A DNA stretch of 64,000 bases from Campylobacteraceae bacterium (GTDB taxonomy: Bacteria > Campylobacterota > Campylobacteria > Campylobacterales > Sulfurovaceae), in contig JALVUD010000019.1 in assembly GCA_027035765.1 (NCBI GenBank), positions 45,757-109,756 on the forward strand. Direction: 5' to 3'. Under the pieces are notes generated by a model. That model was given only the letters and a program-made list of their open reading frames with translations, ran no database searches and had not been told where the DNA came from. A program made the translations under genes and the position numbers. Every line of letters begins with the position of its first letter. Positions within the stretch are counted from its first letter, which is position 1. This document shows positions 8,283 through 63,470 of the stretch, in pieces.

Positions 8283-8317
8283 GTGAGTGAAGAGTGAAGA
8301 GTGAAGAGTGAAGAGTG
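8283..8317. repeat. heptamer micro-array GTGAAGA x4 (plus partial units)
   Basis: gtgaGTGAAGAGTGAAGAGTGAAGAGTGAAGAgtg read directly. A partial inverted copy ttcttcactcttaattcttcactc follows at about 8353-8377. Confidence 0.9.
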
Positions 8318-8382
8318 TTATATTTATCGACGGCAGATTATTCATTTCCAATTCTTCGTTCTTCACTCTTAATTCTTCACTC

Positions 8383-8407
8383 GTTCCGCTGATACAATCA
8401 GCGGAAC
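8383..8407 (-). terminator. hairpin overlapping the stop codon of the SDR gene
   Basis: gttccgctga-tacaa-tcagcggaac forms a perfect 10-bp stem. The TGA stop at 8398-8400 lies inside the right arm. There is no clear U-tract. Confidence 0.3.
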
Positions 8408-9180
8408 GTCGTTCCTCCGTCGACGACCAGGGTCTGGCCGGTGATCCAGCCGGCGTCGTCACTGCAGAGGAAGAGGATGGCGCCGGCCAGGTCTTCGGGA
8501 GTGCCCATGCGGTTGAGCGCCGAGCGTTTGACGGTTTCGGCTTTGACCTCTTCGTAGTTGGTGAAGGCCCGCAGGGCGTCGGTTTCGATGGGGCCGCCGC
8601 TGACGGCGTTGACCCGGATGTTCCACTCCCCCAGCTCCACGGCGGCGTAGCGGGCCATGGCTTCGACGGCGGCTTTGTTGGTGCCGTGGCCGGCGTAGTT
8701 TTCGATATAGATCAGGTTGCCGGTGGAGCTCAGGGTCACGATGGCACCGCCTCCCACCTTTTGCATCCGTTTGGCCGCCTCCTGGCTGCCGGCGACGAAG
8801 GCCCCCACGGTGGCCATATAGATATTGGCCAGGCCCTTTTTGGGACGGAGCTTCATGAACTTGCCGTAGCCGCCGACGACGGGGCGGCCGTAGATCATGG
8901 CGTTGGAGACGAAGAAGTCGACCCGGTCGAAATCTTTGTCAATCGCTTCAAAAAGCGGTTTGAACTGATCGGTATCGAGGATATCGAGAGGGTAGCAGCG
9001 GGCTTTGACGCCGTAGCTCTCCTCCAGCTCCCGGGCGAAGGTCTCGGCGGCCTCCTTGTTGGAGTTGTAGGTGAAGGCGACGTTGATGCCGTTGCGGGCG
9101 AATTTTTCGGCGGTGGCTTTGCCGATGCCCTTGGTGGCCCCGGTAATGACCAGGGTTTTGCCTTTCATGTTTTCGTACAT
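8398..9180 (-). CDS. SDR-family oxidoreductase (FabL/FabG-like)
   Basis: Rossmann motif TGATKGIG and a Y-x3-K region (YAGHGTNKAAVE). It is adjacent to dapA. Confidence 0.85.
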   Translation of the reverse strand: MYENMKGKTLVITGATKGIGKATAEKFARNGINVAFTYNSNKEAAETFARELEESYGVKARCYPLDILDTDQFKPLFEAIDKDFDRVDFFVSNAMIYGRPVVGGYGKFMKLRPKKGLANIYMATVGAFVAGSQEAAKRMQKVGGGAIVTLSSTGNLIYIENYAGHGTNKAAVEAMARYAAVELGEWNIRVNAVSGGPIETDALRAFTNYEEVKAETVKRSALNRMGTPEDLAGAILFLCSDDAGWITGQTLVVDGGTTFR

Positions 9181-9181
9181 C

Positions 9182-10078
9182 TTATTTGACTCCGGGAATG
9201 GTGTAGTTTTTGAGGGCCGCTTCGATCTTTTTCATACTTTCGGTGCCGGGAGGAACGAGGGGCAGGCGGTACTCCAGGCTGGGGATGAGGCCGGCGATAT
9301 ACATGGCGGCCTTGACGGGAATGGGGTTGGACTCGACGAACATCGCCTTGTTGATGGGATAGAGCGAATCGTTGATCGCCTTGGAGGCGGCCAGGTCTCC
9401 CGAGAGGGCGGTATGGACCAGCTTTGATTTGAGATCGGGCAGGAGATTGGCGGTGACGGAGATGATCCCTTTGGCCCCGTTGGCCAGGAGAGGGTAGTCG
9501 ATGGCGTCGTCGCCGCTGACGAGGCAGAGTTCGGGGCGGGCCGCCAGCAGGTCCACCGCCCGCTCCATGGAGCCGGTAGCCTCTTTGATGGCATAGATGT
9601 TGCTCACTTCGTCGAAGAGGCGGAAAACCGTCTCGGGGCGGATATCCACCGAGGTACGGCCCGGGACGTTGTAGAGCATTATGGGAATCTCCACCGCTTC
9701 GGCGATCGCCTTGTAGTGGCGGTAGAGCCCCTCCTGGGAGGGTTTGTTGTAATAGGGGGCCACGGAGAGGAGGGCGTGGGCGCCGCAGGCTTCGGCGTGG
9801 CGGGCGATGTCGATGGCCTCGTGGGTGGCGTTGGATCCGGCGCCGGCAACGACTTTGACGTCAGTCCCCCGGCAGACCTCCACGGCGATCTCGATGCAGC
9901 GTTTGTGCTCATCGTGGCTGAGGGTGGCACTTTCGCCGGTGGTGCCGACGGGAACCACGGCATCCATGCCGTGGGCGATCTGGCGGCGGATCAGCTCGGC
10001 GTAGGTCGTCTCGTCGAGTTGACCGTTTCTAAAAGGGGTGATCAGGGCGGTCATCGCCCCGCAGATGGTGGAACTCAT
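9182..10078 (-). CDS. dapA: 4-hydroxy-tetrahydrodipicolinate synthase
   Basis: 298 aa with full-length DapA-like sequence ([31 protein letters not shown]). Confidence 0.95.
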
Positions 10079-11472
10079 TGATGGTTGCTCCTGAGAATGA
10101 TGGTGGTCGATCGGTTGTGATCGAAATATTTCCGGGCCACTTCCTTGACCCTTTCGGGGGTAATTTTATCCAAATCTTCCTCATACTCCAGCAGGGGCTT
10201 CAGGTCACCTCTTGCCAGATAGGAGCCAAAGAGCGTCGCGGTGGAGGAGGAGCTCTCCAGCTCATGGATGAAATCGACTTTGGTATTGAGGCGGACTTTG
10301 CGCAGCTCCTCTTCGCTGACGCCGTCACGTTTGATCCGCTCGATCTGGGCCAGGATCGCCTTTTCGAGATCTTCGGCTTTGACGCCGGGGTTGGCGACGG
10401 CGAGGAAGAGGAAGATTCCGGGGTCTTTGAGTTCCATGTTGTAGCCGTAGACCTGAGTGGCCAGGGGGTGCTTCTGCATCAGCTCCGCCTGGAGACGGCT
10501 GCTCTTGCCGCTGCTGAGGATCTCGGCGATCATGGAGAGGACCACCTGATCCTTGTGGCGGAAATCGGGGATGGGATAGGCGATGGCGATGGTCTCGGCG
10601 CTGTTGTTCTCTTTGTGGAGAATGACCCGCTTGGCTCCGTCGGTAGGTGGTTCGTAGGGTTCGTTGGTGGTGAGGAGGGAGCAGTCGCACTGCTTCGCGG
10701 GGGCCTTGATCTTGCCGAAGGTCTCCTCGGCGGTGTGGAAGACCGCTTCGGGCTTGATGTCACCGGCGACGATGAGGACGGCGTTGTCGGGGCGGTAGAA
10801 GCGGGCGTGGAACTCCCGGATATCCTCGATATTCCAGTGCTGGATATCGTGCATGAATCCGATAGGAGTCCAATGGTAGCTGTGCTCGACATAGTGGGTG
10901 TTGAAGAGGCGGAAATAGAGGTAGCCCATCGGGTTGTTGTCGGTGCGCCAGCGCCGCTCTTCGGCGACGACTTTGCGCTCTTTTTGGAACTCTTCGTCGG
11001 TGAGCTTGAGGTTGGCCATCAGCTCGGCATAGAGCTCCATGGCCATCTTCATGTTGGCGCTGGAGGATTTGATGAAGTAGTGGGTGTAGTCGAAGCCGGT
11101 CGAAGCGTTGTTGACCCCGCCGTGGGCTTTGACGATTCGGTCGAACTCCCCCTCCGCCAGGTGCTTGGTGGATTTGAAGTTCATATGCTCCAGCATGTGG
11201 GCGATGCCGGTCTTGCCCAGGATTTCGTCCCGGCTGCCGACCTTGTAGAAGATATCGGTGGTGATGACGCCGGTGCCGTTTTCCAGCGGGATGGCGTAGA
11301 CCTCCAGGCCGTTGTCGAGGGTTTTGTGGAAATATTTGGGCAGTGAGTTTGCCATGAGTGCTCCTGAGAGCGGCAGCGCCAGCACTGCCGCAGTGAGTAG
11401 TGAGTAGTGACTAGTGCGTAGTTTTTTGATGAAATTTTTGCAAAATTTCTTGAGTTGCTCGATCATTGTCAT
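10075..11472 (-). CDS. M16-family zinc peptidase (pitrilysin-like)
   Basis: HxxEH zinc motif ([11 protein letters not shown]) and a signal-like [17 protein letters not shown]. The ORF opens at TTG 11499, but ATG 11472 or 11466 follows a GAGGA RBS. Confidence 0.85.
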
Positions 11473-11546
11473 TGATCCTCTGTCGGGATACTTTTGCAAA
11501 GGAAGGATAGCGAATTTGTGATAACAGGTCGTTGGATAGGGGAAGG

Positions 11547-17316: not shown

Positions 17317-18912
17317 ATGCTTTCAACTGTCAATCTGACCCAGCGCTACGGCAAGCGCGTTCTGTTTGAAAAGATCAACCTCACCCTTGACCCCGGCAAG
17401 CGCTACGGCCTCATCGGTGCCAACGGAGCGGGCAAATCGACCTTCATGAAGATCCTGGCCGGCGAGATCGAACCCAGCGAAGGGGAGGTGCAGATCCAGC
17501 CCGGTGCCAAGCTGGGGATGCTGGGGCAGAACCACTACGCCTTCGAGGAGTTCACCCTCAAGGACGCGGTGCTCTACGGCAACAAGCGCCTCTACGAAGC
17601 CCAGAAGGAGAAGGAACGCCTCTACATGGAGGGGAACTTCGATGACGACAAGGTCAACGAACGCCTGGGTGAGCTGGAGATGATCTGTGTCGAGGAGGAT
17701 CCCACCTACGAGAGCAACGTGCGGATCGAAAAGCTCCTGACGGCCCTGGGATTCCCTGTGGAGCAGCACGACAACCCCATGAGCTCCCTCACCGGCGGAG
17801 ACAAGTTCAAGATCCTGCTGGCCCAGGTGCTCTTCCTCAAGCCCGACATCCTGCTGCTCGACGAGCCGACCAACAACCTGGACATGGAGACCATCGCCTG
17901 GCTGGAGGAGGAGCTGCGGCGCCACGACGGTGTCCTGGTCGTCATCTCCCACGACCGCCACTTTCTCAATGCGGTGACGACCCATATCCTGGATCTGGAC
18001 TTCCAGACTATCCGGGAGTTTACGGGGACCTACGACGACTGGTATATCGCCGCCAACCTCAAGGCCAAACAGGCGGAGATGGAGCGCAGCAAGAAGCTCA
18101 AGGAGAAGGAGGAGCTGGAGAAGTTCATCGCCCGCTTCAGCGCCAACGCCTCCAAGGCCAAGCAGGCCACCAGCCGCCAGAAACAGCTGGAGAAGCTGGA
18201 TATCCAGGAGATCAAACTCTCCAGCCGCCGGGATCCTTCGATCCTCTTCAAGCCCAACCGGGAGATCGGCAACGAAGTCCTGGAGGTGGAGCACCTGGCC
18301 AAGAGCTACGGGGATCACAAGGTCTTCGAAGATCTGAGCTTCAAGGTGGAAAAAGGGGACAAGATCGCCCTCATCGGCGGCAACGGGGTGGGCAAGACCA
18401 CCCTTCTGGAGATCCTCATGGGCAACCTGGAGCCCGATGCCGGGCGGGTCAAGTGGGGTCAGACGGTCCATCCCACCTATTTCCCCCAGAACACCACCGA
18501 GATCGTCAAGGGGGAGGAGAAGCTCTATCAGTGGATCCAGAACCACAACCAGAAGTGGCACATCGATGAGATCCGCAAGTGCCTGGGACGGATGCTCTTC
18601 AGCGGTGAGGAGCAGGAGAAGCAGGTGGAAGCCTGCTCCGGTGGAGAGAAGCACCGGATCATGATGTCCAAGATGATGATGGACGACGCCAACTTCCTGG
18701 TCCTGGACGAGCCCGACAACCACCTGGACCTGGAGGCGATCGTCGCCCTGGGCGAAGCCCTGCACAAATACGAAGGGGGCGTCATCTGCGTCACCCACGA
18801 CCGGGAACTCATCGACGCCTTCGCCAACCGGATCCTCAAACTGCATGAAGACGGAACCCTGACCGATTTCCGGGGGAATTACGAGGAGTTTGTTGAGAGT
18901 GAGGGTAACTAG
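17317..18912 (+). CDS. ABC-F family ATPase (translation-factor type)
   Basis: Two ABC cassettes (Walker A GANGAGKST and GGNGVGKTT; signatures LTGGDKFK and CSGGEKHR) joined by a charged linker. No TM domain. Confidence 0.9.
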   Translation: MLSTVNLTQRYGKRVLFEKINLTLDPGKRYGLIGANGAGKSTFMKILAGEIEPSEGEVQIQPGAKLGMLGQNHYAFEEFTLKDAVLYGNKRLYEAQKEKERLYMEGNFDDDKVNERLGELEMICVEEDPTYESNVRIEKLLTALGFPVEQHDNPMSSLTGGDKFKILLAQVLFLKPDILLLDEPTNNLDMETIAWLEEELRRHDGVLVVISHDRHFLNAVTTHILDLDFQTIREFTGTYDDWYIAANLKAKQAEMERSKKLKEKEELEKFIARFSANASKAKQATSRQKQLEKLDIQEIKLSSRRDPSILFKPNREIGNEVLEVEHLAKSYGDHKVFEDLSFKVEKGDKIALIGGNGVGKTTLLEILMGNLEPDAGRVKWGQTVHPTYFPQNTTEIVKGEEKLYQWIQNHNQKWHIDEIRKCLGRMLFSGEEQEKQVEACSGGEKHRIMMSKMMMDDANFLVLDEPDNHLDLEAIVALGEALHKYEGGVICVTHDRELIDAFANRILKLHEDGTLTDFRGNYEEFVESEGN

Positions 18913-54424: not shown

Positions 54425-54437
54425 GAGGGGTGAAGCC

Positions 54438-54465
54438 GCAAGTCGCAAGTCGCAAGTCGCAAGAA
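54438..54465. repeat. heptamer micro-array GCAAGTC x3 plus GCAAGAA
   Basis: Read directly. An inverse two-unit copy (CTTGCGA x2) occurs at 56586-56599. Confidence 0.95.
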
Positions 54466-54467
54466 GT

Positions 54468-54482
54468 GTCGCCTTTGGCGAC
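54468..54482. repeat. hairpin gtcgcc-ttt-ggcgac
   Basis: Perfect 6-bp stem between two arrays. A related inverted copy (gtcgccttcggcg) is at 56569-56581. Confidence 0.85.
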
Positions 54483-54510
54483 GGCATTGGGCATTGGGCA
54501 TTGGGCATTG
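54483..54510. repeat. heptamer micro-array GGCATTG x4
   Basis: Read directly. Confidence 0.95.
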
Positions 54511-54540
54511 GGAATATTGAGAAACGACGTCAATCACAAT

Positions 54541-54568
54541 CTTCCATCTTCCATCTTCCATCTTCCAT
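54541..54568. repeat. heptamer micro-array CTTCCAT x4
   Basis: Read directly. Inverse family (GGAAGAT) at 62582-62602. Confidence 0.95.
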
Positions 54569-54575
54569 CTGTTCA

Positions 54576-54591
54576 TGGGATAGCAATCCCA
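54576..54591. repeat. hairpin tgggat-agca-atccca (inverted copy of the CGTGGGAT hairpin)
   Basis: Followed by ctacgaaatcgg, the inverse of ccgatttcgtag at 56349-56360. Confidence 0.85.
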
Positions 54592-54605
54592 CACTACGAA
54601 ATCGG

Positions 54606-54633
54606 TTACTAGTTACTAGTTACTTGTTACTAG
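54606..54633. repeat. heptamer micro-array TTACTAG x2, TTACTTG, TTACTAG
   Basis: Read directly. Inverse of the AACTAGT family. Confidence 0.95.
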
Positions 54634-54685
54634 TTTGCAAATTGTTCTTCATTCAAAAGCTCTGCTTTTGCCCGGAGCTTGGCCG

Positions 54686-55135
54686 ATGACTGAATGGGCG
54701 TTTCATCTGCATCTGCTGATGGCGATCTCCTGGATCGGGGGATCGGTTTTTATGTTTATTTTGGGAATTTCGCTTCGGGATAAAAAGGCGCAGCAGGAGG
54801 TCTATCCTCATGTCGGTCCGATTTTCGGATGGTTTGAAGTCGCTTCACTGATTATTCTATTGACGACCGGTTTCATCCTGGGGTTTCATTATCACCTTTT
54901 CGATCTGCTTCTACATCCCAACGGAAGCAAAATTTCCCATGCGCTGAGGATGAAAGCGATTTTGGTAGCGATTTTGACGGTGGCTACAGTGGTACATTTC
55001 ATCATTGCCTACAAGACAAACGGCAAAGAGCGGACAAAGTGGGAGCACTTCTTTTCCCGGGGATCTTCGATGCTGATTTTTCTGCTCAACCTCTTTGTGA
55101 TGCACTACGCCATTGTCTTGAGAGATATTCTTTGA
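54686..55135 (+). CDS. integral membrane protein (CopD-like four-helix protein)
   Basis: 149 aa from the ATG at 54686 with four TM helices and conserved His residues (HLHLLMAISWIGG). GC is lower than its neighbours. Confidence 0.5.
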   Translation: MTEWAFHLHLLMAISWIGGSVFMFILGISLRDKKAQQEVYPHVGPIFGWFEVASLIILLTTGFILGFHYHLFDLLLHPNGSKISHALRMKAILVAILTVATVVHFIIAYKTNGKERTKWEHFFSRGSSMLIFLLNLFVMHYAIVLRDIL

Positions 55136-55152
55136 TGGTAAACCCCAAATAA

Positions 55153-55235
55153 CCCCGTCATTCCGGACCCGATCCGGAATCCAGGACCGGAGATACCGTC
55201 GATGCCCTGGATCCTGAATCAAGTTCAGGATGACA
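55153..55235. repeat. ~83-nt three-stem REP-like element, copy 1
   Basis: attccgga-cccga-tccggaat, ccagg...cctgg and atcctgaa-tcaag-ttcaggat. Near-identical to 60522-60607. It sits between convergent genes. Confidence 0.9.
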
Positions 55236-55260
55236 CACTGTGGTGCGATTCAGAAAGGAC

Positions 55261-55482
55261 TCAGTCCAGATATTTCTCTTTCTTCAGCTCTTTGTCTTTT
55301 TGAAGCTCTCTAAAGATCATGGCGACGATCCCGATGACTACCACCAGGACCCCCGCCGTGACAGTGATTTTGAAAAAGAGCTTCCACTCCAGCCACTCAT
55401 CCCAGACCTGGCCGATGAGCAAAACGGCATAAACAGCCAGGATCAGGGCCACTGCCACTCCTGCGATCTGCATGGTCTTCAT
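55261..55482 (-). CDS. small two-helix membrane protein
   Basis: 73 aa with two TM helices and a Lys-rich tail. ATGA overlap with the upstream DUF4177-like gene. Confidence 0.55.
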   Translation of the reverse strand: MKTMQIAGVAVALILAVYAVLLIGQVWDEWLEWKLFFKITVTAGVLVVVIGIVAMIFRELQKDKELKKEKYLD

Positions 55483-55697
55483 TGTCTCTTCTCCCTTTTC
55501 ATGATGACGACATAGCCCTCCCGGCGCCAGAAGAGCAGCATCCGTCGGATATCCTTCTCCATCGTTACCACCTCCCAGCCCTCTTCGGCATTGGCGTTGA
55601 GAAACTGGGTGAAACGGATCGGATCGACCTTCGACTGACCCAAAAGGAGGGAGCCGAGCATCCCTTCCCGATAGAGGACGGCTTTGTATTCCAACAT
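55479..55697 (-). CDS. DUF4177-like small protein
   Basis: 72 aa: MLEYKAVLYREGMLGSLLLG...LNANAEEGWEVVTM. Confidence 0.6.
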   Translation of the reverse strand: MLEYKAVLYREGMLGSLLLGQSKVDPIRFTQFLNANAEEGWEVVTMEKDIRRMLLFWRREGYVVIMKREKRQ

Positions 55698-55755
55698 CTC
55701 GCTACCCCTTTTGTTTTTGCAGATTATATCCAGGTATTGTGAAGAGATCGTGAGA

Positions 55756-56280
55756 TCAGGGACGCAAATCTTCGCGCATCCGTTCGTAGAGTTTTTGGGG
55801 ATTGAAACTGGCGATACTCTCGCCGGTAAAGCGGTGGGGCAGATACTCGAAGAGGAAATAGAAGATCCAGATCATCGGGTAGAAGGCTTTGTACTCTCGG
55901 GAAAAGGCCCGAAAGGTGTAGCGCTCACGGAACCAGCGAACGGCACTTTCGACACCGTTGTGATAGAGCAGCATCTCGATAGCGAAAACCAGGCCCCAGA
56001 CCATATAGGTCATCCCGATCACCATCACCCCCGCTTCGACTCCGTAGAGTGAGACGGCCATGGCCAGAAAGAGGGCCATAAAGAGAGCGAAGGAGTGGAA
56101 GCCCAGCGCCGCGACGATGACGACGACGGAGAAGACGAAGAGGAGGGCGCCGAACATGACGATCGCTTCGATATAGCTCTGCTCCTCGGCGAAAGTGGGG
56201 CTGGTCCAGGCCCCGGCCAGCAGCAGAAAAAAGGCACCGACGACAGCGAGGATAAAGTAGAGTTGGTCTTTCTTTTTCAT
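55756..56280 (-). CDS. hypothetical polytopic membrane protein
   Basis: 174 aa from the ATG at 56280 (MKKKDQLYFILAVVG...) with 4-5 TM helices. Confidence 0.6.
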   Translation of the reverse strand: MKKKDQLYFILAVVGAFFLLLAGAWTSPTFAEEQSYIEAIVMFGALLFVFSVVVIVAALGFHSFALFMALFLAMAVSLYGVEAGVMVIGMTYMVWGLVFAIEMLLYHNGVESAVRWFRERYTFRAFSREYKAFYPMIWIFYFLFEYLPHRFTGESIASFNPQKLYERMREDLRP

Positions 56281-56297
56281 CGGAAACACCCTTGTCG

Positions 56298-56380
56298 AGT
56301 GAGGAACCGAAGATTGGGAACTAGTAACGAGTAACGAGGAACGAGTAACCGATTTCGTAGCGTGGGATTGCTATCCCACG
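56298..56380. repeat. composite module AGTGAGGAACCGAAG-TTGGG-(AACNAGN x4)-AACCGATTTCGTAG-hairpin cgtgggat-tgct-atcccacg
   Basis: Collinear with 22229-22304. Inverted partial copies at 24630-24690 and 54576-54640. Confidence 0.9.
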
Positions 56381-56384
56381 AAAG

Positions 56385-56575
56385 GGTGAATGGTGAAGGG
56401 TGAATGGTGAATGATTTTGGTAGGCGTTGCATAGCAACGCTTTTACTTTTATCAAAAAAGGTGAGAAGGTAAGAAGGTGGGAAGGTGGGTAGTATAGGGT
56501 TTGTAATACCTTCCCGCCTTCTCACCAGCGCGAAGCGCGATCCCACCTTCTGACCTCTGTTGAAACGACGAAAAA
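56385..56575. repeat. ~190-nt composite mosaic element, copy A
   Basis: GTGAATG x3 (56386-56406), hairpin gcgttgc-ata-gcaacgc plus tttt (56417-56437), AAGGTRRG octamer x4 (56451-56482), then ...taccttcccgccttctcaccagcgcgaagcgcgatcccaccttctgacctctgttgaaacgacg. Collinear with 63274-63470. Confidence 0.9.
56447..56519 (-). terminator. long imperfect hairpin plus T6 (minus strand) inside composite copy A
   Basis: On the minus strand, ggtgagaaggcgggaaggta...taccttcttaccttctcacc is followed by TTTTTT. The arms are formed by the octamer array. Confidence 0.5.
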
Positions 56576-56614
56576 CGCCGAAGGCGACACTACTTGCGAC
56601 TTGCGATTCCAACG

Positions 56615-58567
56615 TCAGCCCCTTATCCCATAGAGCCGCGTCAGGGATTCCAGCTTCGGTTTTCGTCCCAGCCACTGCTGGTAGAGGGCGCTCATCTCTT
56701 CGCTGCCGCCGCGGCTGAGGATATGCTCTTCGTAGCCCCTTGCCATCTCCCGGTCGAAGTTGCCCTCGCTATCGAGGCAGGCGAAGAAGGCGTCGGCGCT
56801 GAGGACCTCTGCCCATTTGTAGCTGTAGTACCCCGCGGCGTAGCCGCCGGCGAAGATGTGGGCGAAGCCGTGCTGAAAGCGGTTGTAGGCCGGGGGCTTG
56901 AGCAGGGCGGTGCGCTCGCGGATCTCCTCCAGGAGCTTCTGGACCTCCTCGCCCTGGTAGAGGCGCTGATGGAGGCGGAAGTCGAAGAGGGCGAACTCCA
57001 GCTGCCGGAGCATCCCCAGGGCCGCCTGGAAGTTCTTGGCCGCTTTGATCCGGGCCAGGAGATCCCCGGGGATCGGCTCGCCGCTTTCGTAGTGAAAGGC
57101 GAAACGCCGCAGGATCGGGGCTTCGTAGGCGAAGTTCTCCAGGAACTGGCTGGGGAACTCCACCACATCCCAGGCGACGCCGTTGATGCCACTGACAGAG
57201 CGCTCCGGCACCCGGCTCATGAGATGATGCAGCGCATGGCCCATTTCGTGAAAGAGGGTCACCACATCGTCGTGGCGCAGCAGGCTGGGCTGAGCATCGC
57301 TGGCCGGGGCGAAGTTGCCCACGACAAAGGCGCTGGGCAGGTGCTCGGCTCCCCGGCTGTCGACAAAACGGGTCTCCCAATCGTGCATCCAGGCCCCGCC
57401 GCGCTTGGACTCTCTGGCCTCCAGGTCGAAATAGATCCGCCCCGAGAGCTCACTCCCCCGGTAGATATCGAAGGGACGGACCGTGGGGTGCCAGACGGGA
57501 ACCTCCACCGCCTCGAAACGGAGGCCGAAGAGCTCGCTGACGATCTCCAGGAGCCCTGCCAGGACCCTTTCACGTTCGAAATAGGGTTTGGTTTCGCTCT
57601 CGTCGAAGTCGTAGAGGTGCTTTTTGAGCTTTTCGCTGTAGTAGGCCACATCGTAGCTGGCCAGATCTTCCAAGCCGTCCAGATCCCGGGCGAAATGCCG
57701 CAGCTCCTCCAGCTCCGAGCGCCCCTGGGGCAGGGAGAGATCCACCAGCTTCTCCAGAAAGTCGATCACCTCCCACTCGTTGCGGGCATCCCGGCTCTGA
57801 AGGGCGTATTCGGCGTAGTTGCCAAAGCCCAGCATTTCGGTTTTGCGCCGGCGTAGCTCCAGGATCCGGTCGATGACGGCGGCATTTTCGGGAGCTCGGG
57901 TGGTATAGGCCCGGTAGAGCTCTTCGCGGAGCTTCCGGTTGGGACCGTAGATCATATAGGCCATATAGCTGGGGATCTGGAGGGTGAAGCGCCACTTGGT
58001 CTTGCTCTCGTCTTCGAAACGGGCGGCGGCCAGATCGCTTTCGGGAATCCCCGCCACATCCGCAGGATCCTCGATGATCAGCTCATAGGCTTGGGTGGCG
58101 TCCAGCAGATTCTGACTGAAACGGTTGGAGAGTTCGCTCAGCTCCAGATCGATGGCTTCGAGCTCTTTTTTCTGCTCCAGAGGCAGCTCCGCCCCGCTGA
58201 GGCGGAAATCCCGGATCTCGTTCTCCAGGACCTTCTGCTGCTCAGGGGTTTGGGGACGGAGACGTTTGAGTTTGGCGTAGAGGGCCTCGTTTTGGGCGAT
58301 TTCGCTGTGGAAGCGGCTCAGCAGGGGTAGAGAGGCTTCGTAGGCCTTTTGGGTCGCCTCGGAGTTGAGGACGCTGTTGAGATGGGAAAGCGGTGTGAAG
58401 AAGAGGCTGCGCTCCTCGTCCAGATCCTCCATGGGCTTGAGGACCGCTTCGTAGTCGTCGCTCTCGCTCTGTGCCAACGCATCGATCCGCTCTTTCTGTT
58501 GTTTGAGCAGGGCGTCGAGTTCTGTGGCAAAGGTCTCCAGATTCTCTAAGTGAAATTGGGCGAACAT
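56615..58567 (-). CDS. prlC: M3-family oligopeptidase A
   Basis: Zinc motif FHEMGHALHH and a length of about 650 aa from the ATG at 58567. Confidence 0.9.
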   Translation of the reverse strand: MFAQFHLENLETFATELDALLKQQKERIDALAQSESDDYEAVLKPMEDLDEERSLFFTPLSHLNSVLNSEATQKAYEASLPLLSRFHSEIAQNEALYAKLKRLRPQTPEQQKVLENEIRDFRLSGAELPLEQKKELEAIDLELSELSNRFSQNLLDATQAYELIIEDPADVAGIPESDLAAARFEDESKTKWRFTLQIPSYMAYMIYGPNRKLREELYRAYTTRAPENAAVIDRILELRRRKTEMLGFGNYAEYALQSRDARNEWEVIDFLEKLVDLSLPQGRSELEELRHFARDLDGLEDLASYDVAYYSEKLKKHLYDFDESETKPYFERERVLAGLLEIVSELFGLRFEAVEVPVWHPTVRPFDIYRGSELSGRIYFDLEARESKRGGAWMHDWETRFVDSRGAEHLPSAFVVGNFAPASDAQPSLLRHDDVVTLFHEMGHALHHLMSRVPERSVSGINGVAWDVVEFPSQFLENFAYEAPILRRFAFHYESGEPIPGDLLARIKAAKNFQAALGMLRQLEFALFDFRLHQRLYQGEEVQKLLEEIRERTALLKPPAYNRFQHGFAHIFAGGYAAGYYSYKWAEVLSADAFFACLDSEGNFDREMARGYEEHILSRGGSEEMSALYQQWLGRKPKLESLTRLYGIRG

Positions 58568-58804
58568 CGGCTTCCTTTTTGATGCAATGATAGTGATAAA
58601 AATACTGCTATATGATTCTGAGAAATATTGTCGGCATTGTAGCATAGTCGCCTCAGAGCGTTCGAAATTTCACAGGACACTTTTCTACCCTTTTTACACT
58701 GTTTCACGACAAAGAAGAAAGGAAACGAAGAATTTCCACGTCAAAGACAAGGAGCTTTGGATAGAATTTGAGATCGATTCTCGTTGGAAAGTGGGTGTTT
58801 GCAG

Positions 58805-60496
58805 ATGTGGACGTGGTGGCGGATCATTGCACTGTTGTCAATCCTGGCTTCGACGCTCTGGAGTGTAGAGGGACCTCGTGGCCCTGAGACTCGGACCGGG
58901 AAGGAGACGCTGAGTCAGAGTGAACGGGCCTATCTCCGGAAAAAGCAGGCGATCCGTATGTGTGTCGATCCCCACTGGATGCCGATGGAGCATGTAGACA
59001 GCCAAGGCCGCTACGAAGGGATCCTGGCAGATTTTTCCCGCCTGATCTCCCGGAAACTCGGCCTCCCTTTCCGTCTGGTCCGGACACCGGATTATCAGAC
59101 CAGCCGCCGCTATCTCAAAGAGGGACGCTGCGATATCATCATGGGGGAGCAGGCCACCCCCGAGGTGCTCAAGCACTATCTGGCCACCCGTCCCTACTAT
59201 CGGGCGCCCCGAGCTTTCGTCACCCATGTGGATGCGACCCTGGTGCACAACTTTTCACAGATCGCCCATTCGGGGCCGGTGGGGGTTTTGAAAAACTCTC
59301 CGGCTGAAACACTGCTTCCCAAACTCTATCCCGGGATCCGTCTGGTCGCGATGAAAGACGGGGACGCCGGATTGAGAAAGGTGGCCTCCAAAGAGCTGGT
59401 GGCTTTTGTCAATATCATTCCCAGTCTTGTCTATTCGATTCAGAAACAGGGCCTGAGCAATCTCAAGATCGCCGGAACCCTCCCCGACGAGGTGAAGCTC
59501 TCGATGCTCGTCAACAAAAACGAAGCTCCCCTGGTCCCCATCCTGAACAAGGCGATCGGAAGCATCACGCAGCAGGAGCGTCAGAAGATTCTGAGCCGAT
59601 GGGTCCAGATACGCTACGCAGCCCATCCGGACCATACGGGGCTGATTCGACTGCTCCTCCTCCTGGGACTGCTTTCGGTGATCCTGCTTGCCTGGCTCTA
59701 TCACACCCGCCGGATGCACCGTGCCTTGCAGAAAGTCCACCGGGAGCTGGAGGCGAAGTTTCAGAAAGAGTTGGAGCGTAACCGCGAACATCAGCTGATG
59801 CTGCTGCAGCAGAACCGGCTGGCCCAGAAGGGGCAGATTCTCAATATGATTGCCCATCAATGGCGCCAACCCCTCAATATACTCTCCATTGTCACACAGG
59901 TCTGTCTTTCGCAGATGCGAAAAGAGGTCGGGCAGAGCGAAGTCCTGGATCATTTCGAGGAGAAAAGCAAAAGCCTGATCGGCGAGATGTCGGCAACCAT
60001 CGACTCTTTTCGGGACTTTTTCCGCCCGGAGAGGGCGCGGGTGGCTTTCAGCGTCAATCGTGTCGTCGAAGATCTCTTTCCGATGATCCGGCCCCTCTAT
60101 GAGCAGCAGGGAATCGATCTGAAGTGGAGGGCTGAGAAGGAGATTTCCTATCGGGGGTATCCCAAAGAGCTGGGCCAGGCTCTGCTGAATATCCTCTACA
60201 ATGCCTCCGAAGTGATCCGGGAACGAGAGATAAGGAACGGCCGTGTCGATGTCGGCCTCCGTGAAGAGGGGGATCAGATCCTTTTGGAAATCTGTGACAA
60301 CGCCGGAGGCGTCTCCAAGGAGATCATCGGGGAGATCTTCGATCCCTATTTCTCCACCAAAGATGCCAAAAACGGTACGGGATTGGGCCTCTATATGAGC
60401 AAATTGATCGTCGAGGAGCACATGGGAGGGCGTCTGGAGGTTTACAACAGTGCAGAGGGGGCCTGTTTCCGGATCCGCTTTCCGCTGGTGAGTTGA
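58805..60496 (+). CDS. sensor histidine kinase with periplasmic solute-binding (SBP_bac_3-like) domain
   Basis: Signal/anchor, a periplasmic domain of about 230 aa, a TM helix, the H-box MIAHQWRQPLN, and an ATPase domain (N-box LLNILYNASE, G-boxes DNAGG and GTGLGLYMS). Confidence 0.85.
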   Translation: MWTWWRIIALLSILASTLWSVEGPRGPETRTGKETLSQSERAYLRKKQAIRMCVDPHWMPMEHVDSQGRYEGILADFSRLISRKLGLPFRLVRTPDYQTSRRYLKEGRCDIIMGEQATPEVLKHYLATRPYYRAPRAFVTHVDATLVHNFSQIAHSGPVGVLKNSPAETLLPKLYPGIRLVAMKDGDAGLRKVASKELVAFVNIIPSLVYSIQKQGLSNLKIAGTLPDEVKLSMLVNKNEAPLVPILNKAIGSITQQERQKILSRWVQIRYAAHPDHTGLIRLLLLLGLLSVILLAWLYHTRRMHRALQKVHRELEAKFQKELERNREHQLMLLQQNRLAQKGQILNMIAHQWRQPLNILSIVTQVCLSQMRKEVGQSEVLDHFEEKSKSLIGEMSATIDSFRDFFRPERARVAFSVNRVVEDLFPMIRPLYEQQGIDLKWRAEKEISYRGYPKELGQALLNILYNASEVIREREIRNGRVDVGLREEGDQILLEICDNAGGVSKEIIGEIFDPYFSTKDAKNGTGLGLYMSKLIVEEHMGGRLEVYNSAEGACFRIRFPLVS

Positions 60497-60521
60497 TCCG
60501 GAAATTTAACCATAGAAAATT

Positions 60522-60607
60522 CCCCCGTCATTCCGGACTTGATCCGGAATCCAGGACCGGGAATACCCATAGATGCCCTGGATCCTGAATCGAGTTCAGG
60601 ATGACGA
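60522..60607. repeat. ~85-nt three-stem REP-like element, copy 2
   Basis: cccccgtcattccggacttgatccggaatccaggaccgggaatacccatagatgccctggatcctgaatcgagttcaggatgacga. It sits between convergent genes. Confidence 0.9.
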
Positions 60608-60610
60608 AGT

Positions 60611-61381
60611 TTAATCATCGGTTGCCTCCAAGAACTTCTCCAAAACCTTCGCAAAGTCGGGATGATCAAGGATATCGGTATGGTCGCTTCCGGGAAGGAT
60701 CCGTACCGTGACACTGCTTTGTCGCAGGCTGTCGATGAGATGTTGGGAGTTGCGGCGGGGAATGACCCGGTCATGCTCTGCCAAAAGGACCAGGGTTTCG
60801 GCCTTGACCTCCGGCGCATAACGGAGGCTATCGAAGGGATCCTTGATGATGAGGCGGACGGGAAAGATGGGGTAACGCCGTTGGCCCAGAGCGGCGATAC
60901 TGTCGTAGGGGGTGACGAGGATCAGCCGCTTCACGGGTCGACGGGCCGCCAGATAGACCGCGACCCCGCTGCCCAGACTCCGGCCGATCACGTCAACCTG
61001 ACGGTGGCGGGGGGCGACGGTATCGTAGAGTTTCAAGGCCATCTCAAAAAGAGCTGCCTGGGAGGGGGTGCCTTCGCTGCGTCCATAGCCGGGGTAGTGG
61101 GGGAAATAGAGGGTATGTTCCGGAAGCATCGCCGCCAGGGTGTCGGGATCTTCCCAGTAGTGTTCCGAATTGCCGGGGAAGTAGATGAGGCCCTTCGCTC
61201 GCCCTTCGTTTCGCACTTCGATCCGAATCCTCTTGCCGCCCAGTTCGAGGAAAAATCCGTGCCTGGCCGGCGTCTCACCGGTGGGATGAAAGAGAATGGA
61301 GCGCTGGGAGAGATAGAGCCAGGCCAGAGCTCCCAGATAGAGCAGGAGCAGGAGGAGCAATCCCCAGGCCAGCATCTTCAT
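60611..61381 (-). CDS. alpha/beta hydrolase
   Basis: N-terminal anchor and nucleophile elbow GRSLGSG. ATGA overlap with the truD stop. Confidence 0.75.
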   Translation of the reverse strand: MKMLAWGLLLLLLLYLGALAWLYLSQRSILFHPTGETPARHGFFLELGGKRIRIEVRNEGRAKGLIYFPGNSEHYWEDPDTLAAMLPEHTLYFPHYPGYGRSEGTPSQAALFEMALKLYDTVAPRHRQVDVIGRSLGSGVAVYLAARRPVKRLILVTPYDSIAALGQRRYPIFPVRLIIKDPFDSLRYAPEVKAETLVLLAEHDRVIPRRNSQHLIDSLRQSSVTVRILPGSDHTDILDHPDFAKVLEKFLEATDD

Positions 61382-62556
61382 CGTTCACGTCTCTTTTTGG
61401 ATCGGTTTTTTTTATCGGGTGCCGATTTTGCTCGGTGGCGCTGCGACTCGACTTTTGTAGAATCCGATTCGGGTTTCGGAGCCAGAGAGCGCTGGGCCAG
61501 CTCCTCCAGCAGCGTAGTGGCATAGGCCCCGGGAGGGAGGGTAAACTCCAGCTCCAGCGCCTCCTGATCGGGAAGGATCTTCCCGCTCAGATCTTCGGGC
61601 CAGATCCAGGCATCCCGCCGGTCGCCGGGCAGGGCGGTGAGCTCTTCGTCGTCCCAGGGGGCCTCCAGGTGTCTTGCGTCGGAGCGGGCCCGCCAGACTT
61701 TGGCCCCGGGGAGCAGCCCGGTGACCGTGAGGCGTTTCCGAGCGAAGGCCTGGGCATCCTGCAGGGGATCGCGGCAGCCAAAGAGTTTTTTCCCGTCGGG
61801 AACCTTGCGCAGCAGATCCCCCTGAAAAAGTTTGAAAAAGCCCGGCTGGGTACGCAGTGCCTGGATCAGCTCCCTGGGCCACTGCAGGTTTTTGGCCGCC
61901 TCGACTTCACTTTGGGCCCTGATGATCTGTGAGGCACGGACCCGTTCCGAAAGCCAGCGGTTGAAGAGATGACTCTGCCAGGCGGCGACCAGGAGCTTTT
62001 CGCGGCTCCCCTTGAGCCGCTTGCCGCTTTGGGCGATCTGTCGTCCCTGTTCCCAGCTGCGGCCATCCTCACCGAAACGCTGATAGCCGAAGTAGTTGGG
62101 GATCCCGGAGGATTCGAACACTTTCGCCTGCCCGATCAGCCGCTGCGCTTCTGAGGGGGTGATACGGTCCAGTAGGATGCGGAAACGGTTGCCCCTCAGA
62201 GCTCCCATTTTCAAAGGGGAGCGGTCTCTGCTCACCTCCAGCAGCTCGATGCGCTCGGTTTTGAGGTTCTTGAGCTCTTTTTCGTAGCGGAGGGGGAGGG
62301 TGAAATACTGGATCGCTGTCGCAGCTTTGTCTTTGAGCCCGGCATAGCCGATCTGGCGCTCCTGCGCTCCCGTGGCCTTTTGCAGGACACTCAGCAGCCG
62401 CCAGGTGCTCAGGTCGCGCTTGAGGATTTTCAGCCGGAGGTATTCTCCCCGGCCGGTGGGAGGGTGGAGAGGAATCTCCTCCACACGAAAACGTTCGACA
62501 CTCTGGTAGAAACGGAACGAAAAAGGCTTGAAGCCCTCGATAAGGGTAGGTTGCAT
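61378..62556 (-). CDS. truD: tRNA pseudouridine(13) synthase TruD
   Basis: FRVEEIP and GYAGLKDK blocks, with a basic C-terminal tail. Confidence 0.85.
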   Translation of the reverse strand: MQPTLIEGFKPFSFRFYQSVERFRVEEIPLHPPTGRGEYLRLKILKRDLSTWRLLSVLQKATGAQERQIGYAGLKDKAATAIQYFTLPLRYEKELKNLKTERIELLEVSRDRSPLKMGALRGNRFRILLDRITPSEAQRLIGQAKVFESSGIPNYFGYQRFGEDGRSWEQGRQIAQSGKRLKGSREKLLVAAWQSHLFNRWLSERVRASQIIRAQSEVEAAKNLQWPRELIQALRTQPGFFKLFQGDLLRKVPDGKKLFGCRDPLQDAQAFARKRLTVTGLLPGAKVWRARSDARHLEAPWDDEELTALPGDRRDAWIWPEDLSGKILPDQEALELEFTLPPGAYATTLLEELAQRSLAPKPESDSTKVESQRHRAKSAPDKKNRSKKRRER

Positions 62557-62567
62557 GGAGGGATTAT

Positions 62568-62619
62568 ACAGGATTTAGGATGGAAGATGGAAAATGGAAG
62601 ATGAAATTTTCCATCTTCC
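62568..62619 (-). terminator. heptamer units (ACAGGAT TTAGGAT GGAAGAT GGAAAAT GGAAGAT) whose last unit forms a hairpin ggaagatg-aaattttc-catcttcc
   Basis: 8-bp stem at 62596-62619, located 34 nt downstream of the ubiX stop on the minus strand and followed there by attttcc. Confidence 0.4.
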
Positions 62620-62652
62620 CACTGGGAACCATGGAAACAAGATAATTACTAG

Positions 62653-63183
62653 TTACTCGTTCCCCTCCCATCGCCGATAGAGCTGATGTTCGATCCCCAG
62701 CAGGTCGTACCATTTTCCAATCCAGAAGCGTTCCATGGCCTCCAGGGAGTCGTGGTCGCTGTAGTAGCCGGGGAGGGGTGGGGCGATGTGGACGCCAAGG
62801 CGGGAGAGTTTGAGCATGTTCTCCAGGGCGATGGGGGAGAAGGGCATCTCCCGGGGAGCCAGGAGGAGGGGTCTGCGCTCTTTGAGGGCTACGGCGGCGG
62901 CACGGGTGGTGAGGGTGTCGGATATACCGCAGGCGATCTTGGCCAGGGTGTTCATGGAGCAGGGGATCACGGCGGTGGCATCCACTCCGAAGGAGCCGCT
63001 GGCGATGGCGGCGGCGATGTTGTCGTCGCTGTGGAAGGTGATATTGCCCATCTCGTGCTGCTGGACGGTCCGGGCGTTGTCTGAGAAGATCACATGGGCT
63101 TCGATCCCGTCAGGGAGCCAGCGGACAAACTTCTCCCCCAGCTCCACGCCGCTGGCTCCGGAGATGGCGACAGCTATTTTCAT
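62653..63183 (-). CDS. ubiX: flavin prenyltransferase UbiX
   Basis: MKIAVAISGASG..., ...CSMNTLAKIA..., 176 aa. Confidence 0.9.
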   Translation of the reverse strand: MKIAVAISGASGVELGEKFVRWLPDGIEAHVIFSDNARTVQQHEMGNITFHSDDNIAAAIASGSFGVDATAVIPCSMNTLAKIACGISDTLTTRAAAVALKERRPLLLAPREMPFSPIALENMLKLSRLGVHIAPPLPGYYSDHDSLEAMERFWIGKWYDLLGIEHQLYRRWEGNE

Positions 63184-63202
63184 CGTGAAAGCTCCGCTTT
63201 CG

Positions 63203-63261
63203 AGTGAAGAGTGAAGAGTGAAGAGTGAATAGTTTTGGTTAGTGAGGAGTGAGGAGTGAGG
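63203..63261. repeat. heptamer arrays AGTGAAG x3, AGTGAAT, AGTTTTG, then AGTGAGG x3
   Basis: 63203-63237 and 63241-63261, followed by the junction aaccgg as at 22236 and 56305. Confidence 0.95.
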
Positions 63262-63273
63262 AACCGGTTTTTA

Positions 63274-63470
63274 ATGGTGAATGGTGAATGGTGAATGGTG
63301 AATGGTTGCGGTTGACGTTGCTTTGCAACGCTTTTGTCAAAAAGGGTTAGAAGGTTAGATGGTGGGAAAGTGGGTAGTATAGGATTTACAATACCTTCCC
63401 ACATTCTCACCAGCGTGAAGCGCGATCCCACCCTCTGACCTCTGTTCAAACGACAAAGAGGGGCGAAGCC
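63274..63470. repeat. ~190-nt composite mosaic element, copy B
   Basis: ATGGTGA x4-5 (63274-63308), hairpin cgttgc-ttt-gcaacg plus ctttt (63316-63335), octamers AGGGTTAG AAGGTTAG ATGGTGGG AAAGTGGG (63343-63374), then ...taccttcccacattctcaccagcgtgaagcgcgatcccaccctctgacctctgttcaaacgac. Collinear with 56385-56575. Confidence 0.9.

Follow-up and report, generated by a model that had tools for sequence, protein, structure and literature searches.

The intergenic spacers of a 64,000-nt stretch of Campylobacterota DNA (contig JALVUD010000019.1 of assembly GCA_027035765.1, forward-strand positions 45,757 to 109,756; hereafter the window, meaning the whole of this stretch) carry short tandem arrays of seven-nucleotide units. 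We show that they are heptanucleotide micro-arrays of the STRR type (repetitive sequences with short units repeated in tandem), a class also called long simple-sequence repeats (LSSR), set in mosaic intergenic elements; the known class is extended here to the Sulfurovaceae, with some new regularities. Although bacterial repeats with tandem heptamer units were first described decades ago, what they do and why their period is 7 nt are, to our knowledge, not yet understood. The account that we favour as a whole, and regard as moderately probable, is that STRR-type arrays, made and homogenised by slippage in 7-nt steps, form a transcript-level module under selection.

The first-pass annotation of the window had supposed a Campylobacterota-like genome, and the encoded proteins agree with this. 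SufD is 95% identical to a protein of a Nitratifractor sp. and 81% identical to that of Nitratifractor salsuginis DSM 16511, and LepA is nearest to proteins of Sulfurovum-labelled metagenome-assembled genomes (98% and 91%). Nitratifractor is placed in the Sulfurovaceae (Campylobacterota). Judged from these proteins, the hydrothermal-vent bacterium from which the window comes is a relative of Nitratifractor.

Heptamer arrays in the spacers

Tandem Repeats Finder gave 63 rows for the window and, across 11 spacers (lettered A to K along the window), 28 period-7 arrays and two octamer arrays. Together with direct reading of the sequence, it recovered every family and position that the first-pass annotation had listed, although one inverted array, of GCAAGTC at 56592, has 2.1 copies only, and the octamer family AAGGTRRG, clear at 56458, is weaker at 63345. 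When periods 4-12 were scanned separately and stringently for arrays of at least three copies, period 7 yielded 15, period 6 a single one and the other periods none. All 15 lie in intergenic DNA (5.1 kb) and none in coding DNA (58.9 kb), the split being taken from an approximate gene map refined with gene calls on matching assemblies; the suggestion that no array sits inside a confident coding sequence is thus borne out, with 11392-11422 left as an ambiguous case. No period-7 array arose in 500 dinucleotide-preserving shuffles of the 38 spacers.

Copy number is peaked rather than decaying. Between 4.1 and 4.9 copies are present in 20 of the 28 period-7 arrays, and when the threshold is lowered to two copies the distribution still climbs to a maximum at 4-4.5, so that the common period and narrow copy range first read by eye both hold. 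Arrays typically comprise some 4.4 units, or about 31 nt. The 64 kb hold at least 12 unit families; 19 of the 30 arrays use a three-letter alphabet only, and 17 of the 30 are free of self-structure, in a window of 57% G+C. Arrays that the first-pass annotation had missed are the inverted copy at 8360-8382, AGTGAGT x4.4 at 11392-11422, AGTGAGG x3.1 at 63241 and a degenerate module at 32315-32398, and it had noted neither the purine-to-pyrimidine polarity nor the cross-species conservation of layout described below.

The arrays are reproduced in independent assemblies. Two scaffolds of European Nucleotide Archive (ENA) assembly ERZ23491869 and the Logan contigs of SRR13622959 match the window at 100% identity in every array that they span, both Logan contigs terminating within arrays. 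A contig of ERZ23491061 (L081) is 99.9% identical across 18.4 kb and leaves all arrays from 46974 to 62603 unchanged. At the 63202 array the same contig carries a G to T change at the same unit position in three successive units (AGTGAAT for AGTGAAG), with the copy number unaltered. Based on the agreement of three assemblies and the same layout in related species, an assembly artefact is ruled out. From 40 bases past the variant units (L081 18325-18510, corresponding to window 63186 onward), the L081 sequence departs into other modules, comprising the hairpin CGAAAGC-TAT-GCTTTCG, AATGAGG x3 and TGAGAAT x3, before the contig ends; this variant end would reflect either a polymorphism between strains or a switch by the assembler from one repeat copy to another. 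Heptamer mosaics do break short-read assemblies, as Logan and ENA contigs stop inside them. They may also mislead gene callers, since a stop-free array allows an open reading frame (ORF) to be extended; ORF 24607-25869 runs through spacer E.

These comparisons bear on the idea that the arrays are contingency loci, in which a change of copy number would switch neighbouring genes by phase variation. Tandem repeats are classic slippage hot spots and some of the arrays stand just before start codons. Copy numbers are nevertheless identical in the three samples or assemblies for every compared array, with the unit substitution at 63202 as the only change, and the neighbours are housekeeping genes (suf, lepA, ABC-F, truD). 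As no array lies in confident coding sequence or between promoter hexamers, and a 7-nt step in an untranslated spacer shifts no reading frame, we consider phase variation extremely improbable.

A known RNA family was likewise ruled out: at gathering thresholds Rfam 15 identified two tRNAs only in the whole window, and the spacers of 54300-63600 gave no match at E <= 1. A sub-threshold match to radC RNA at 56943-57087 on the minus strand (29.5 bits against a gathering threshold of 40; E 0.013) falls inside the coding sequence of an M3 peptidase and is probably due to chance.

Layout, handedness and turnover

The elements share a recurrent module order. An upstream stop codon is followed by at least one purine-rich, G-rich array of about 4.4 heptamers, a connector (A[AG]TTTTGG or AACCG...) with a GC-rich hairpin of 6-8 bp, pyrimidine-rich, G-poor arrays, again of about 4.4 heptamers, a Shine-Dalgarno (SD) motif and the next start codon. 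To quantify the polarity of this order, arrays were read in the sense of the flanking co-directional genes, and their position from stop to start was compared with their G-minus-C content. Position and skew are correlated for the 26 arrays of the window (Spearman rho -0.54, p 0.004) and for 38 arrays when the related genomes L207 and L209 are included (rho -0.62, p 3e-5). Stop-side arrays are G-rich and C-poor (G>C in 13, G<C in 3) and start-side arrays G-poor and C-rich (G>C in 1, G<C in 16), and the pyrimidine-arm-first order is essentially unseen. Because turning a spacer around does not change the order, this is a true handedness relative to gene ends, running from purine to pyrimidine.

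Placement follows gene ends as well. The 11 array-bearing spacers all contain a gene 3' end, and none of the 7-8 divergent spacers has an array. In four spacers of the window (C, D, G and H), and also in the relatives L001, L207 and L209, arrays adjoin a stop codon or extend over it. We also attempted a polarity test on metagenome contigs, where 49 of 82 AGTGAAG arrays follow a stop codon in the purine sense, about 24 of them within 10 nt. This result carries little weight, as a purine-sense array closes all reading frames while the opposite sense has no stops, which biases the comparison.

At one orthologous locus, the spacer between sufD and sufE, layout and copy number are conserved. We compared this locus in the window, in L207 (95% SufD identity), L214 (93%), L211 (89%) and L212 (86%), and in N. 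salsuginis (L209, 81%). The spacer measures 102-116 nt in the six genomes and has the same layout in all six: stop codon, four purine-rich heptamers, a TTTTGG-like unit, a GCGTTGC hairpin, about four TTNCTAG heptamers, SD motif and start codon. The six spacers can be aligned unit for unit, with about 3.3-5.0 copies per array. The left-arm units are AGTGAAG, AGTTAAT, AGTGAAT, AGTGAAG, AGTGAGG and AATGAGA across the six genomes, and the right-arm unit is TTNCTAG in most of them and TTTCTAW in N. salsuginis. The hairpin keeps its stem and varies in its loop, and the tag beside it differs by genome (CTAC, TATC, CATC, TTTG or TTAC). Left-arm units are 84% identical within a genome, compared with 66% for units in the same position of different genomes (a contrast reached by 0 of 5000 permutations), which indicates that the units of the left array have evolved in concert while their copy number was held at about 3.3-5.0.

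In the more distant L215 and L216 (78% and 72% SufD identity, about 57% G+C) the spacers are longer and hold degenerate period-7 tracts together with the same hairpin types; a 60% relative with 39% G+C has none.

Other loci turn over quickly. The spacer downstream of lepA measures 12 nt in L027 (98% LepA identity), 66 nt in L207, where it holds only a degenerate GTGYNAN x4, and 290 nt in the window, whose excess of about 225 nt corresponds to four arrays and two hairpins. Among related genomes the density of stringent arrays ranges from 0 to 3.9 per 10 kb. The neighbourhood of lepA differs in gene content too: in the Sulfurovum-like genomes L001-L003 a small gene of about 115 aa follows lepA, which is absent there from the window and from L027, and the 290 nt of arrays stand in its place in the window. 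At 48883-52486 the window has FIST-domain and PAS-GGDEF-EAL genes between prs and lepA, which are adjacent in L001-L004.

This turnover would fit a neutral or selfish by-product of replication slippage that favours 7-nt units, has no function and is tolerated in spacers; the four-copy peak would then be a mutational balance of expansion against a tendency to deletion that is stronger in longer arrays. Heptanucleotides are described as the commonest class of long simple-sequence repeat (SSR) in many prokaryotes, with polymerase slippage and a footprint of roughly 7 nt proposed as its source (Mrazek 2007, as cited in PMC4679880 and PMC4692102). The range of the lepA spacer and of array density, the great diversity of unit sequences and the differing arrays of spacer I in the 95% relative fit such an origin. 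A neutral by-product would be harder to reconcile with the sufD-sufE layout and its four or so copies, which six genomes with SufD identities as low as 81% have retained despite changes in the units, with the fixed purine-then-pyrimidine order, and with identical copy numbers in three samples. A few heptamers also recur across genera: AATGAGG and CTAGTTA are shared with N. salsuginis, AGTGAAG and the composite AATTAGG/AATGAGG + AATTTTGG + hairpin with L001, and CTACCCA with L207. We hold the by-product explanation to be rather unlikely.

Several observations weigh against selection on a conserved module, and so against the account that we favour. At sufD-sufE the right arm has changed in concert to a small extent only (89% identity within genomes, 85% between them), and the lack of arrays in divergent spacers reaches no more than marginal significance (an estimated p of about 0.06). 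The orthologue of spacer I in L207 has wholly different arrays (AGTGGGT, ATTGAGA and CCAATGA), which in a 95% relative fits turnover better than conserved function. In principle, a peak in copy number could also arise from mutational equilibrium with no selection at work. The RNA predictions, considered below, add further points of this kind.

Spacer mosaics and module copying

The spacers had been described as built from heptamer arrays. The arrays are real, but the spacers are mosaics in which arrays alternate with conserved connector units and GC-rich hairpins. Adjoining arrays are linked by degenerate units in a common register, and a typical array closes with a partial unit that is conserved (A[AG]TTTTG-G or AACCG...), after which comes a GC-rich hairpin whose stem measures 6-8 bp. 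The proposed sharing of one 7-nt register by neighbouring arrays is seen over 10 units in spacer C, 15 in D and 23 in E, connectors such as AACCGAA, GGTTGGA and AACCGAT included, and fails in I and K, where the register is interrupted by 3-nt shifts. Two hairpin types recur, namely GCGTTGC-nnn-GCAACGC (34577, 47013, 56424 and 63316) and CGTGGGAT-TGYT-ATCCCACG (22285 and 56361, inverted at 54576). GTAG, or CTAC on the other strand, flanks five of roughly 12-15 hairpins (22281, 47030, 54594, 56357 and 56420).

An all-against-all comparison of the spacers shows that composite modules of array, connector and hairpin have been duplicated between loci in either orientation. Spacers D and E have in common a 66-nt module, inverted and 91% identical; D and I share 86 nt, and H and I share 60 nt, inverted. 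The modules common to D, E, H and I span 43-86 nt. Spacers I (56385-56569) and K (63276-63454) have a 185-nt element in common at 85% identity. The first-pass annotation had suggested that units diversify in situ. Single registers running through blocks of different units and the concerted evolution of the left sufD-sufE array are in keeping with this, whereas the recurrence of modules at different loci means that copying of units from one locus to another takes place alongside their diversification in situ.

Such mosaics call to mind repetitive extragenic palindromic (REP) sequences and their composites, bacterial interspersed mosaic elements (BIMEs), or miniature inverted-repeat transposable elements (MITEs), with hairpins spread by a REP-associated tyrosine transposase (RAYT) or by recombination and arrays serving as linkers. 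The GTAG flanks, the recurrence of composite modules in both orientations and the presence of GTAG- and CGTC-tagged REPs in Sulfurovum sp. NBC37-1 (PMC3733652) speak for this, as does the block of about 225 nt in spacer H relative to its orthologue, whose two ends match the ends of spacer I, inverted. An unrelated REP-like element of 85 nt moreover occurs twice in convergent spacers. The GTAG tag is not kept at the orthologous sufD-sufE hairpin, however, and that element is stably orthologous rather than recently inserted. Neither target-site duplications nor terminal inverted repeats were seen, and no transposase gene turned up in the 64 kb plus about 9 kb, although no search for one was made. 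Resemblance to BIMEs extends to small GC-rich hairpins, some of them GTAG-tagged, and to mosaics in 3' or intercistronic rather than promoter spacers; the elements differ in having heptamer arrays between the palindromes and an inconsistent tag. Mobility of this kind would explain dispersal and is compatible with our favoured account; as the mechanism of dispersal we judge it unlikely.

Along the window, spacer A (8261-8397, between two minus-strand genes) contains GAGTGAA x4.7 (8285-8317) and a degenerate inverted TCTTCAC x3.3 (8360-8382), which are predicted to pair as a long interrupted stem (z = -4.65; here and below, fold z-scores are relative to dinucleotide shuffles). Next in order is AGTGAGT x4.4 at 11392-11422, whose placement is ambiguous: it lies either upstream of an M16 peptidase gene starting at 11354, which has a strong AGGAG SD motif, or within a 5' extension coding for a signal peptide. 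Read in the direction of the M16 peptidase gene (11354-11472, minus strand), the array is free of stop codons, and with the start at 11466 chosen by the gene caller it would encode part of a plausible signal peptide.

Spacer C (18907-19034, plus strand) leads from an ABC-F gene to an endonuclease III-like gene. AACTAGN lies over the stop codon and is followed by AATGAGG, AATTAGG, AATTTTGG, the hairpin GCGGGAA-TTCA-TTCCCGC (18980-18997) and AATCCAA x4.6 up to the start codon. Its ten units in phase are AACTAGN x4, AATGAGG x2, AATTAGG x3 and AATTTTG, and the left arrays are predicted to pair with the right array around the hairpin (z = -4.03). Spacer D (22173-22306, plus strand, between convergent genes) has 15 units in one register, AACTAGA x3, AACTAGT x2, AATGGGG, AGTGAGG/AGTGAAG x3, AACCGAA, GGTTGGA, AACTAGT/AACGAGT x3 and AACCGAT, and ends in GTAG and the hairpin CGTGGGAT-TGTT-ATCCCACG (22285-22304; z = -2.96). 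Spacer E (24595-24747, plus strand) runs from a TatD gene to an SLT-domain gene, its 23 units forming GGATTTT x4.7, CTAGTTA x4.4, TTCCTCA x4.4 and CTACCCA x4.3, linked by connector units; 24630-24710 is an inverted copy of the spacer D module AATGAGG-AACCGAAG-AACTAGT. In the convergent spacer at 32315-32398, a degenerate AACCGAA...AAC(N)GGT module with a hairpin gives a weak match (32 nt at 87.5%). Spacer F (34537-34593, minus-strand genes) comprises GGATKTT x4.6 (34537-34568), GGTTG and the hairpin GCGTCGC-TTT-GCGACGC (34577-34593), with two more hairpins up to about 34645 (z = -4.18).

Spacer G (46974-47072, plus strand) is the sufD-sufE spacer of the suf operon. Its AGTGAAG x4.4 overlaps the stop codon, and AGTTTTGG, the hairpin GCGTTGC-ATT-GCAACGC (47013-47029), CTAC, TTNCTAG x4.3, the SD motif and the start codon follow. 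Spacer H (54396-54635, plus strand), from lepA to the next gene, begins with GTGCTAN x4.3, CGCAAGT x4.4 and the hairpin GTCGCC-TTT-GGCGAC (54468-54482) and continues with GGCATTG x4.3, ATCTTCC x4.6, the hairpin TGGGAT-AGCA-ATCCCA (54576-54591) with CTAC, and GTTACTA x4.4.

The last three spacers lie among minus-strand genes. Spacer I (56298-56606; z = -5.47) opens with an AGTGAGG-AACCGAA connector, AACGAGT x4.4 and GTAG with the hairpin CGTGGGAT-TGCT-ATCCCACG (56361-56380). GGTGAAT x4.1 and GTAG with the hairpin GCGTTGC-ATA-GCAACGC (56424-56440) form its middle, and at its end the octamer AAGGTRRG x3.8 (56458-56487), predicted to pair with downstream CCTTCCCGCCTTCTCACC, is followed by ACTTGCG x2.1. 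Spacer J (62579-62619) is a hairpin formed by GATGGAA x3.6 and its short inverted copy (TTTTCCATCTTCC; z = -2.73). Spacer K (63202-63454; z = -2.50), a paralogue of I, has GAGTGAA x4.6, AGTTTTGG, AGTGAGG x3.1, AACCGG, AATGGTG x4.9 and the hairpin CGTTGC-TTT-GCAACG (63316-63330), and its degenerate octamers from 63345 pair with downstream CCTTCCCACATTCTCACC. The paralogous elements of I and K both lie upstream of minus-strand genes, for a 174-aa protein of unknown function and a flavoprotein; in both the octamers pair with a CCTTCC(C/A)... tract, and neither has an Rfam match. The 185-nt element could be a shared leader or a small RNA.

By family, GAGTGAA/AGTGAAG stands at 8285, 22213, 46974 and 63202, AACTAGN at 18907, 22173 and 22250 (inverted at 24636, 47043 and 54605), AACGAGT at 56319, AATGAGG/AATTAGG at 18935 with its inverse CCTCATT at 24679, and GGATTTT, GGATKTT and AATCCAA at 24595, 34537 and 19003. 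CCCACTA is found at 24718, GTGCTAN at 54396, GCAAGTC at 54433, GGCATTG at 54483, CTTCCAT at 54539, GGAAGAT at 62579 and GGTGAAT/AATGGTG at 56385 and 63273.

Three further features of the window are separate from the heptamer arrays. The 85-nt repeat lies at 55145-55235 and 60520-60610, both times between convergent genes and with two small hairpins (ccccgtcattccggacYYgatccggaatccaggaccgg...gatgccctggatcctgaatcRagttcaggatgac); it looks like a REP or bidirectional-terminator element, and a similar CCCGGACTCGATCCGGGG motif occurs in L215. The segment 22317-23818 has a low G+C content (about 44% against 57% for the window) and three minus-strand ORFs, and may be foreign DNA; it is bordered on the left by spacer D, with spacer E beyond the adjacent TatD gene. 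Finally, the spacer at 20358-20589, which has no heptamer arrays, has a very stable predicted structure (minimum free energy -78.8 kcal/mol, z = -7.4) built on a long AT-rich inverted repeat (ttcatttcttttctttgtttcgcgacaaagaaaaaggaaac...).

Predicted RNA structure, distribution and possible role

Excess predicted RNA structure accompanies the arrays, with a fold z <= -2.5 in 7 of the 11 array spacers compared with 1 of 10 array-free spacers. In the predicted folds of spacers A, C, G and J the left and right arrays pair through 5-bp helices separated by 2-nt internal loops, with a hairpin as the cap, and the arms of the N. salsuginis sufD-sufE spacer pair likewise (z = -5.7). Other folds do not favour this pairing. 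In the window itself the sufD-sufE spacer gains no stability over its shuffles (z from about 0 down to -0.9), excess structure is also missing from spacers B, E and H, and the neighbouring arrays of spacer H are not complementary. Covariation support for arm-arm pairing at sufD-sufE was not obtained: the consensus fold of the six orthologues (RNAalifold) backs the tip hairpin and a short extension only, with 3 covarying pairs and an unfavourable covariation term (+0.81 kcal/mol). Nor is the sense RNA stabler than the antisense, so that selection on the sense transcript through greater stability is unsupported; the plus strand is stabler in 9 of 10 co-directional spacers whatever the direction of the genes, owing to GC skew. 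A role for the hairpins as intrinsic terminators was also considered and rejected, as few qualify, those of the GCGTTGC type in I and K having T-runs on the antisense strand and the suf-operon hairpin none.

It is a strongly supported inference that slipped-strand mispairing or unequal exchange makes and homogenises the arrays, units being gained, lost and homogenised in 7-nt steps. Gain and loss in such steps would explain why single registers run through blocks of related units and why orthologues differ in length by whole units, and homogenisation would explain why units resemble their array-mates more than the orthologous unit of a sister species. Composite modules are in addition duplicated to other spacers in either orientation, and one may speculate that template switching between the arms of a quasi-palindrome keeps them partly complementary.

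A transcript-level role seems moderately probable to us, since the elements occupy sites at which transcripts stop or run on from one cistron to the next, rather than promoter-only spacers, and have arms that could pair; it would parallel the role proposed for cyanobacterial STRR sequences. Pairing of the two arms would give a stem broken at regular intervals, with the GC hairpin at its tip, and this stem-loop might lend stability to the mRNA segment upstream or set its limit. The G-free arm, which precedes the next start and lacks ATG, GTG, TTG and SD-like motifs, would keep the ribosome-binding site accessible. Most purine arms contain stop codons in all three frames, as 7 and 3 are coprime. 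Selection probably holds the elements as intercistronic or 3'-end stem-loop modules, and selection on layout would explain a copy number near four, a fixed purine-pyrimidine order and a drifting unit sequence.

The architecture is not peculiar to this lineage. At least 120 stretches of metagenome contigs, from many samples and at 31-65% G+C, carry (AGTGAAG)3.4, and many of the contigs listed carry other four-copy heptamer families nearby. The copy number of the arrays other than AGTGAAG on these contigs again peaks at 4-4.5, and some contigs, such as L168 and L139, have inverted array pairs around a hairpin or central stretch. Multi-family clusters that include AGTTGAG, AATTGAA, GGTTAGG and ACTCTAC were observed on L082, L139, L144, L168 and others.

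The recurring copy number raises the possibility that the arrays are double-stranded DNA platforms, each heptad binding a subunit or dimer of an oligomerising protein (for example of the ribbon-helix-helix type), with about four heptads as the functional quantum. The omega/ParB protein of plasmid pSM19035 binds contiguous 7-bp heptads, direct or inverted, and needs at least four for full activity (PMC9499535), which is a precedent only. That system resembles the arrays in its contiguous 7-bp units, their two orientations and their number, and differs in having a single consensus read by one plasmid protein at promoter and centromere sites, compared with many units at chromosomal 3' and intercistronic sites here. 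A platform would be in line with the 4.0-4.5 peak, here and in unrelated metagenome contigs, and with the recurrence of the same heptads across genera. With at least 12 unrelated units in 64 kb, however, such binding would call for a whole set of proteins or for a protein of almost no specificity; at the orthologous locus the units drift freely, arrays are absent from promoter-only spacers, and no candidate protein was identified. We consider protein platforms very unlikely.

A broader reading, which we think quite unlikely, is that the four-heptad purine-hairpin-pyrimidine module is widespread and either that a limited heptad vocabulary is read by conserved oligomeric factors or that the arrays are made by a length-measuring process. 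Such a vocabulary could include the RRTGARR group (AGTGAAG, AATGAGG, AGTGAGG and GGTGAAT) and units with a CTAG core. It would account for the recurrence of heptads in distant taxa, as with AGTGAAG, for the copy peak, and for a layout that outlasts its units.

The closest described analogue, as the first-pass annotation had proposed, is the cyanobacterial STRR sequences, 7-bp repeats that with a possible hairpin lie between hupS and hupL, where roles in transcript stability or translational coupling have been suggested (PMC2670836); in Calothrix, three tandemly repeated heptanucleotides were reported (PMC4692102). The arrays resemble these in their tandem 7-bp units, in having several families per genome at many non-coding sites, and in lying between genes of one operon. 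They differ in their host, a member of the Sulfurovaceae rather than a filamentous, heterocystous cyanobacterium, in their units and in their tight sizing at about 4.4 copies, cyanobacterial arrays reaching 43 copies for TAACTGA (PMC4679880). Marine Beggiatoaceae, some Cyanobacteria and Bacteroidetes carry TAACTGA repeats in intergenic sets of 2-6, often just before start codons; the sets are unstructured as RNA, and close relatives have shorter, repeat-free spacers (PMC4679880). They too are intergenic heptamer sets, mixed in some genomes with other heptamer repeats, but a single unit dominates in Beggiatoaceae (169 sets), compared with many families and a hairpin-centred layout here. No two-copy tandem match to TAACTGA was found in the window even with 2 mismatches.

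The canonical STRR units are CCCCAGT, TTGGTCA and CAACAGT, none of which is the unit of any of the 15 stringent arrays in the window. TGACCAA, which we take to be the reverse complement of the cyanobacterial STRR2 unit TTGGTCA, is a rotation of the unit of (CCAATGA)x4 in L207 (13580-13608), and two copies of TGACCAR lie at 34652-34668 in the window. We know of no earlier description, for STRR sequences, of a purine-then-pyrimidine order around a GC hairpin or of concerted evolution at an orthologous locus.

Other precedents lie outside the cyanobacteria. Like the long SSRs with units of 5-11 nt, tandem heptamers are over-represented and mostly non-coding; as represented in the papers that cite it, that work concerns genome statistics, in contrast to the mosaics with hairpins, the four-copy mode and the polarity described here (Mrazek 2007, cited above). 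In Geobacter metallireducens, the Gmet_H4 series consists of four tandem GGACCGG (49 copies) or five MTYCTGA (15 sites) and is thought to be regulatory (PMC2700814). These elements are likewise dispersed sets of four or five tandem heptanucleotides, and differ in forming one or two GC-rich families that also occur inside genes, without many-family mosaics. For Microcystis, Gramella, Aequorivita and Elizabethkingia, MacGregor (2015) noted "larger assemblages of heptamer repeats" that share one spacer (PMC4679880). Full-text searches of the literature gave no account of such arrays in Nitratifractor or Sulfurovum, in line with the earlier remark that no such architecture was known from a Campylobacterota-like genome; similar assemblages do exist in other bacteria (PMC4679880, PMC2700814).

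The lineage offers a compact comparative system, with a small genome (2.1 Mb in N. salsuginis), dense arrays and several related genomes. The N. salsuginis strain is, moreover, in culture. In sufD-sufE it provides an operon-internal, orthologous element whose layout and copy number are kept while the left units evolve in concert. The copy mode near four, the purine-then-pyrimidine order and the three-letter units free of self-structure are testable regularities, and bear on hypotheses of mRNA 3'-end or processing modules, ribosome-access leaders and heptad-reading proteins. Were the module with a read vocabulary to prove true, it would be a general bacterial device of intercistronic or 3'-end control, and would give STRR-like repeats their long-missing function.

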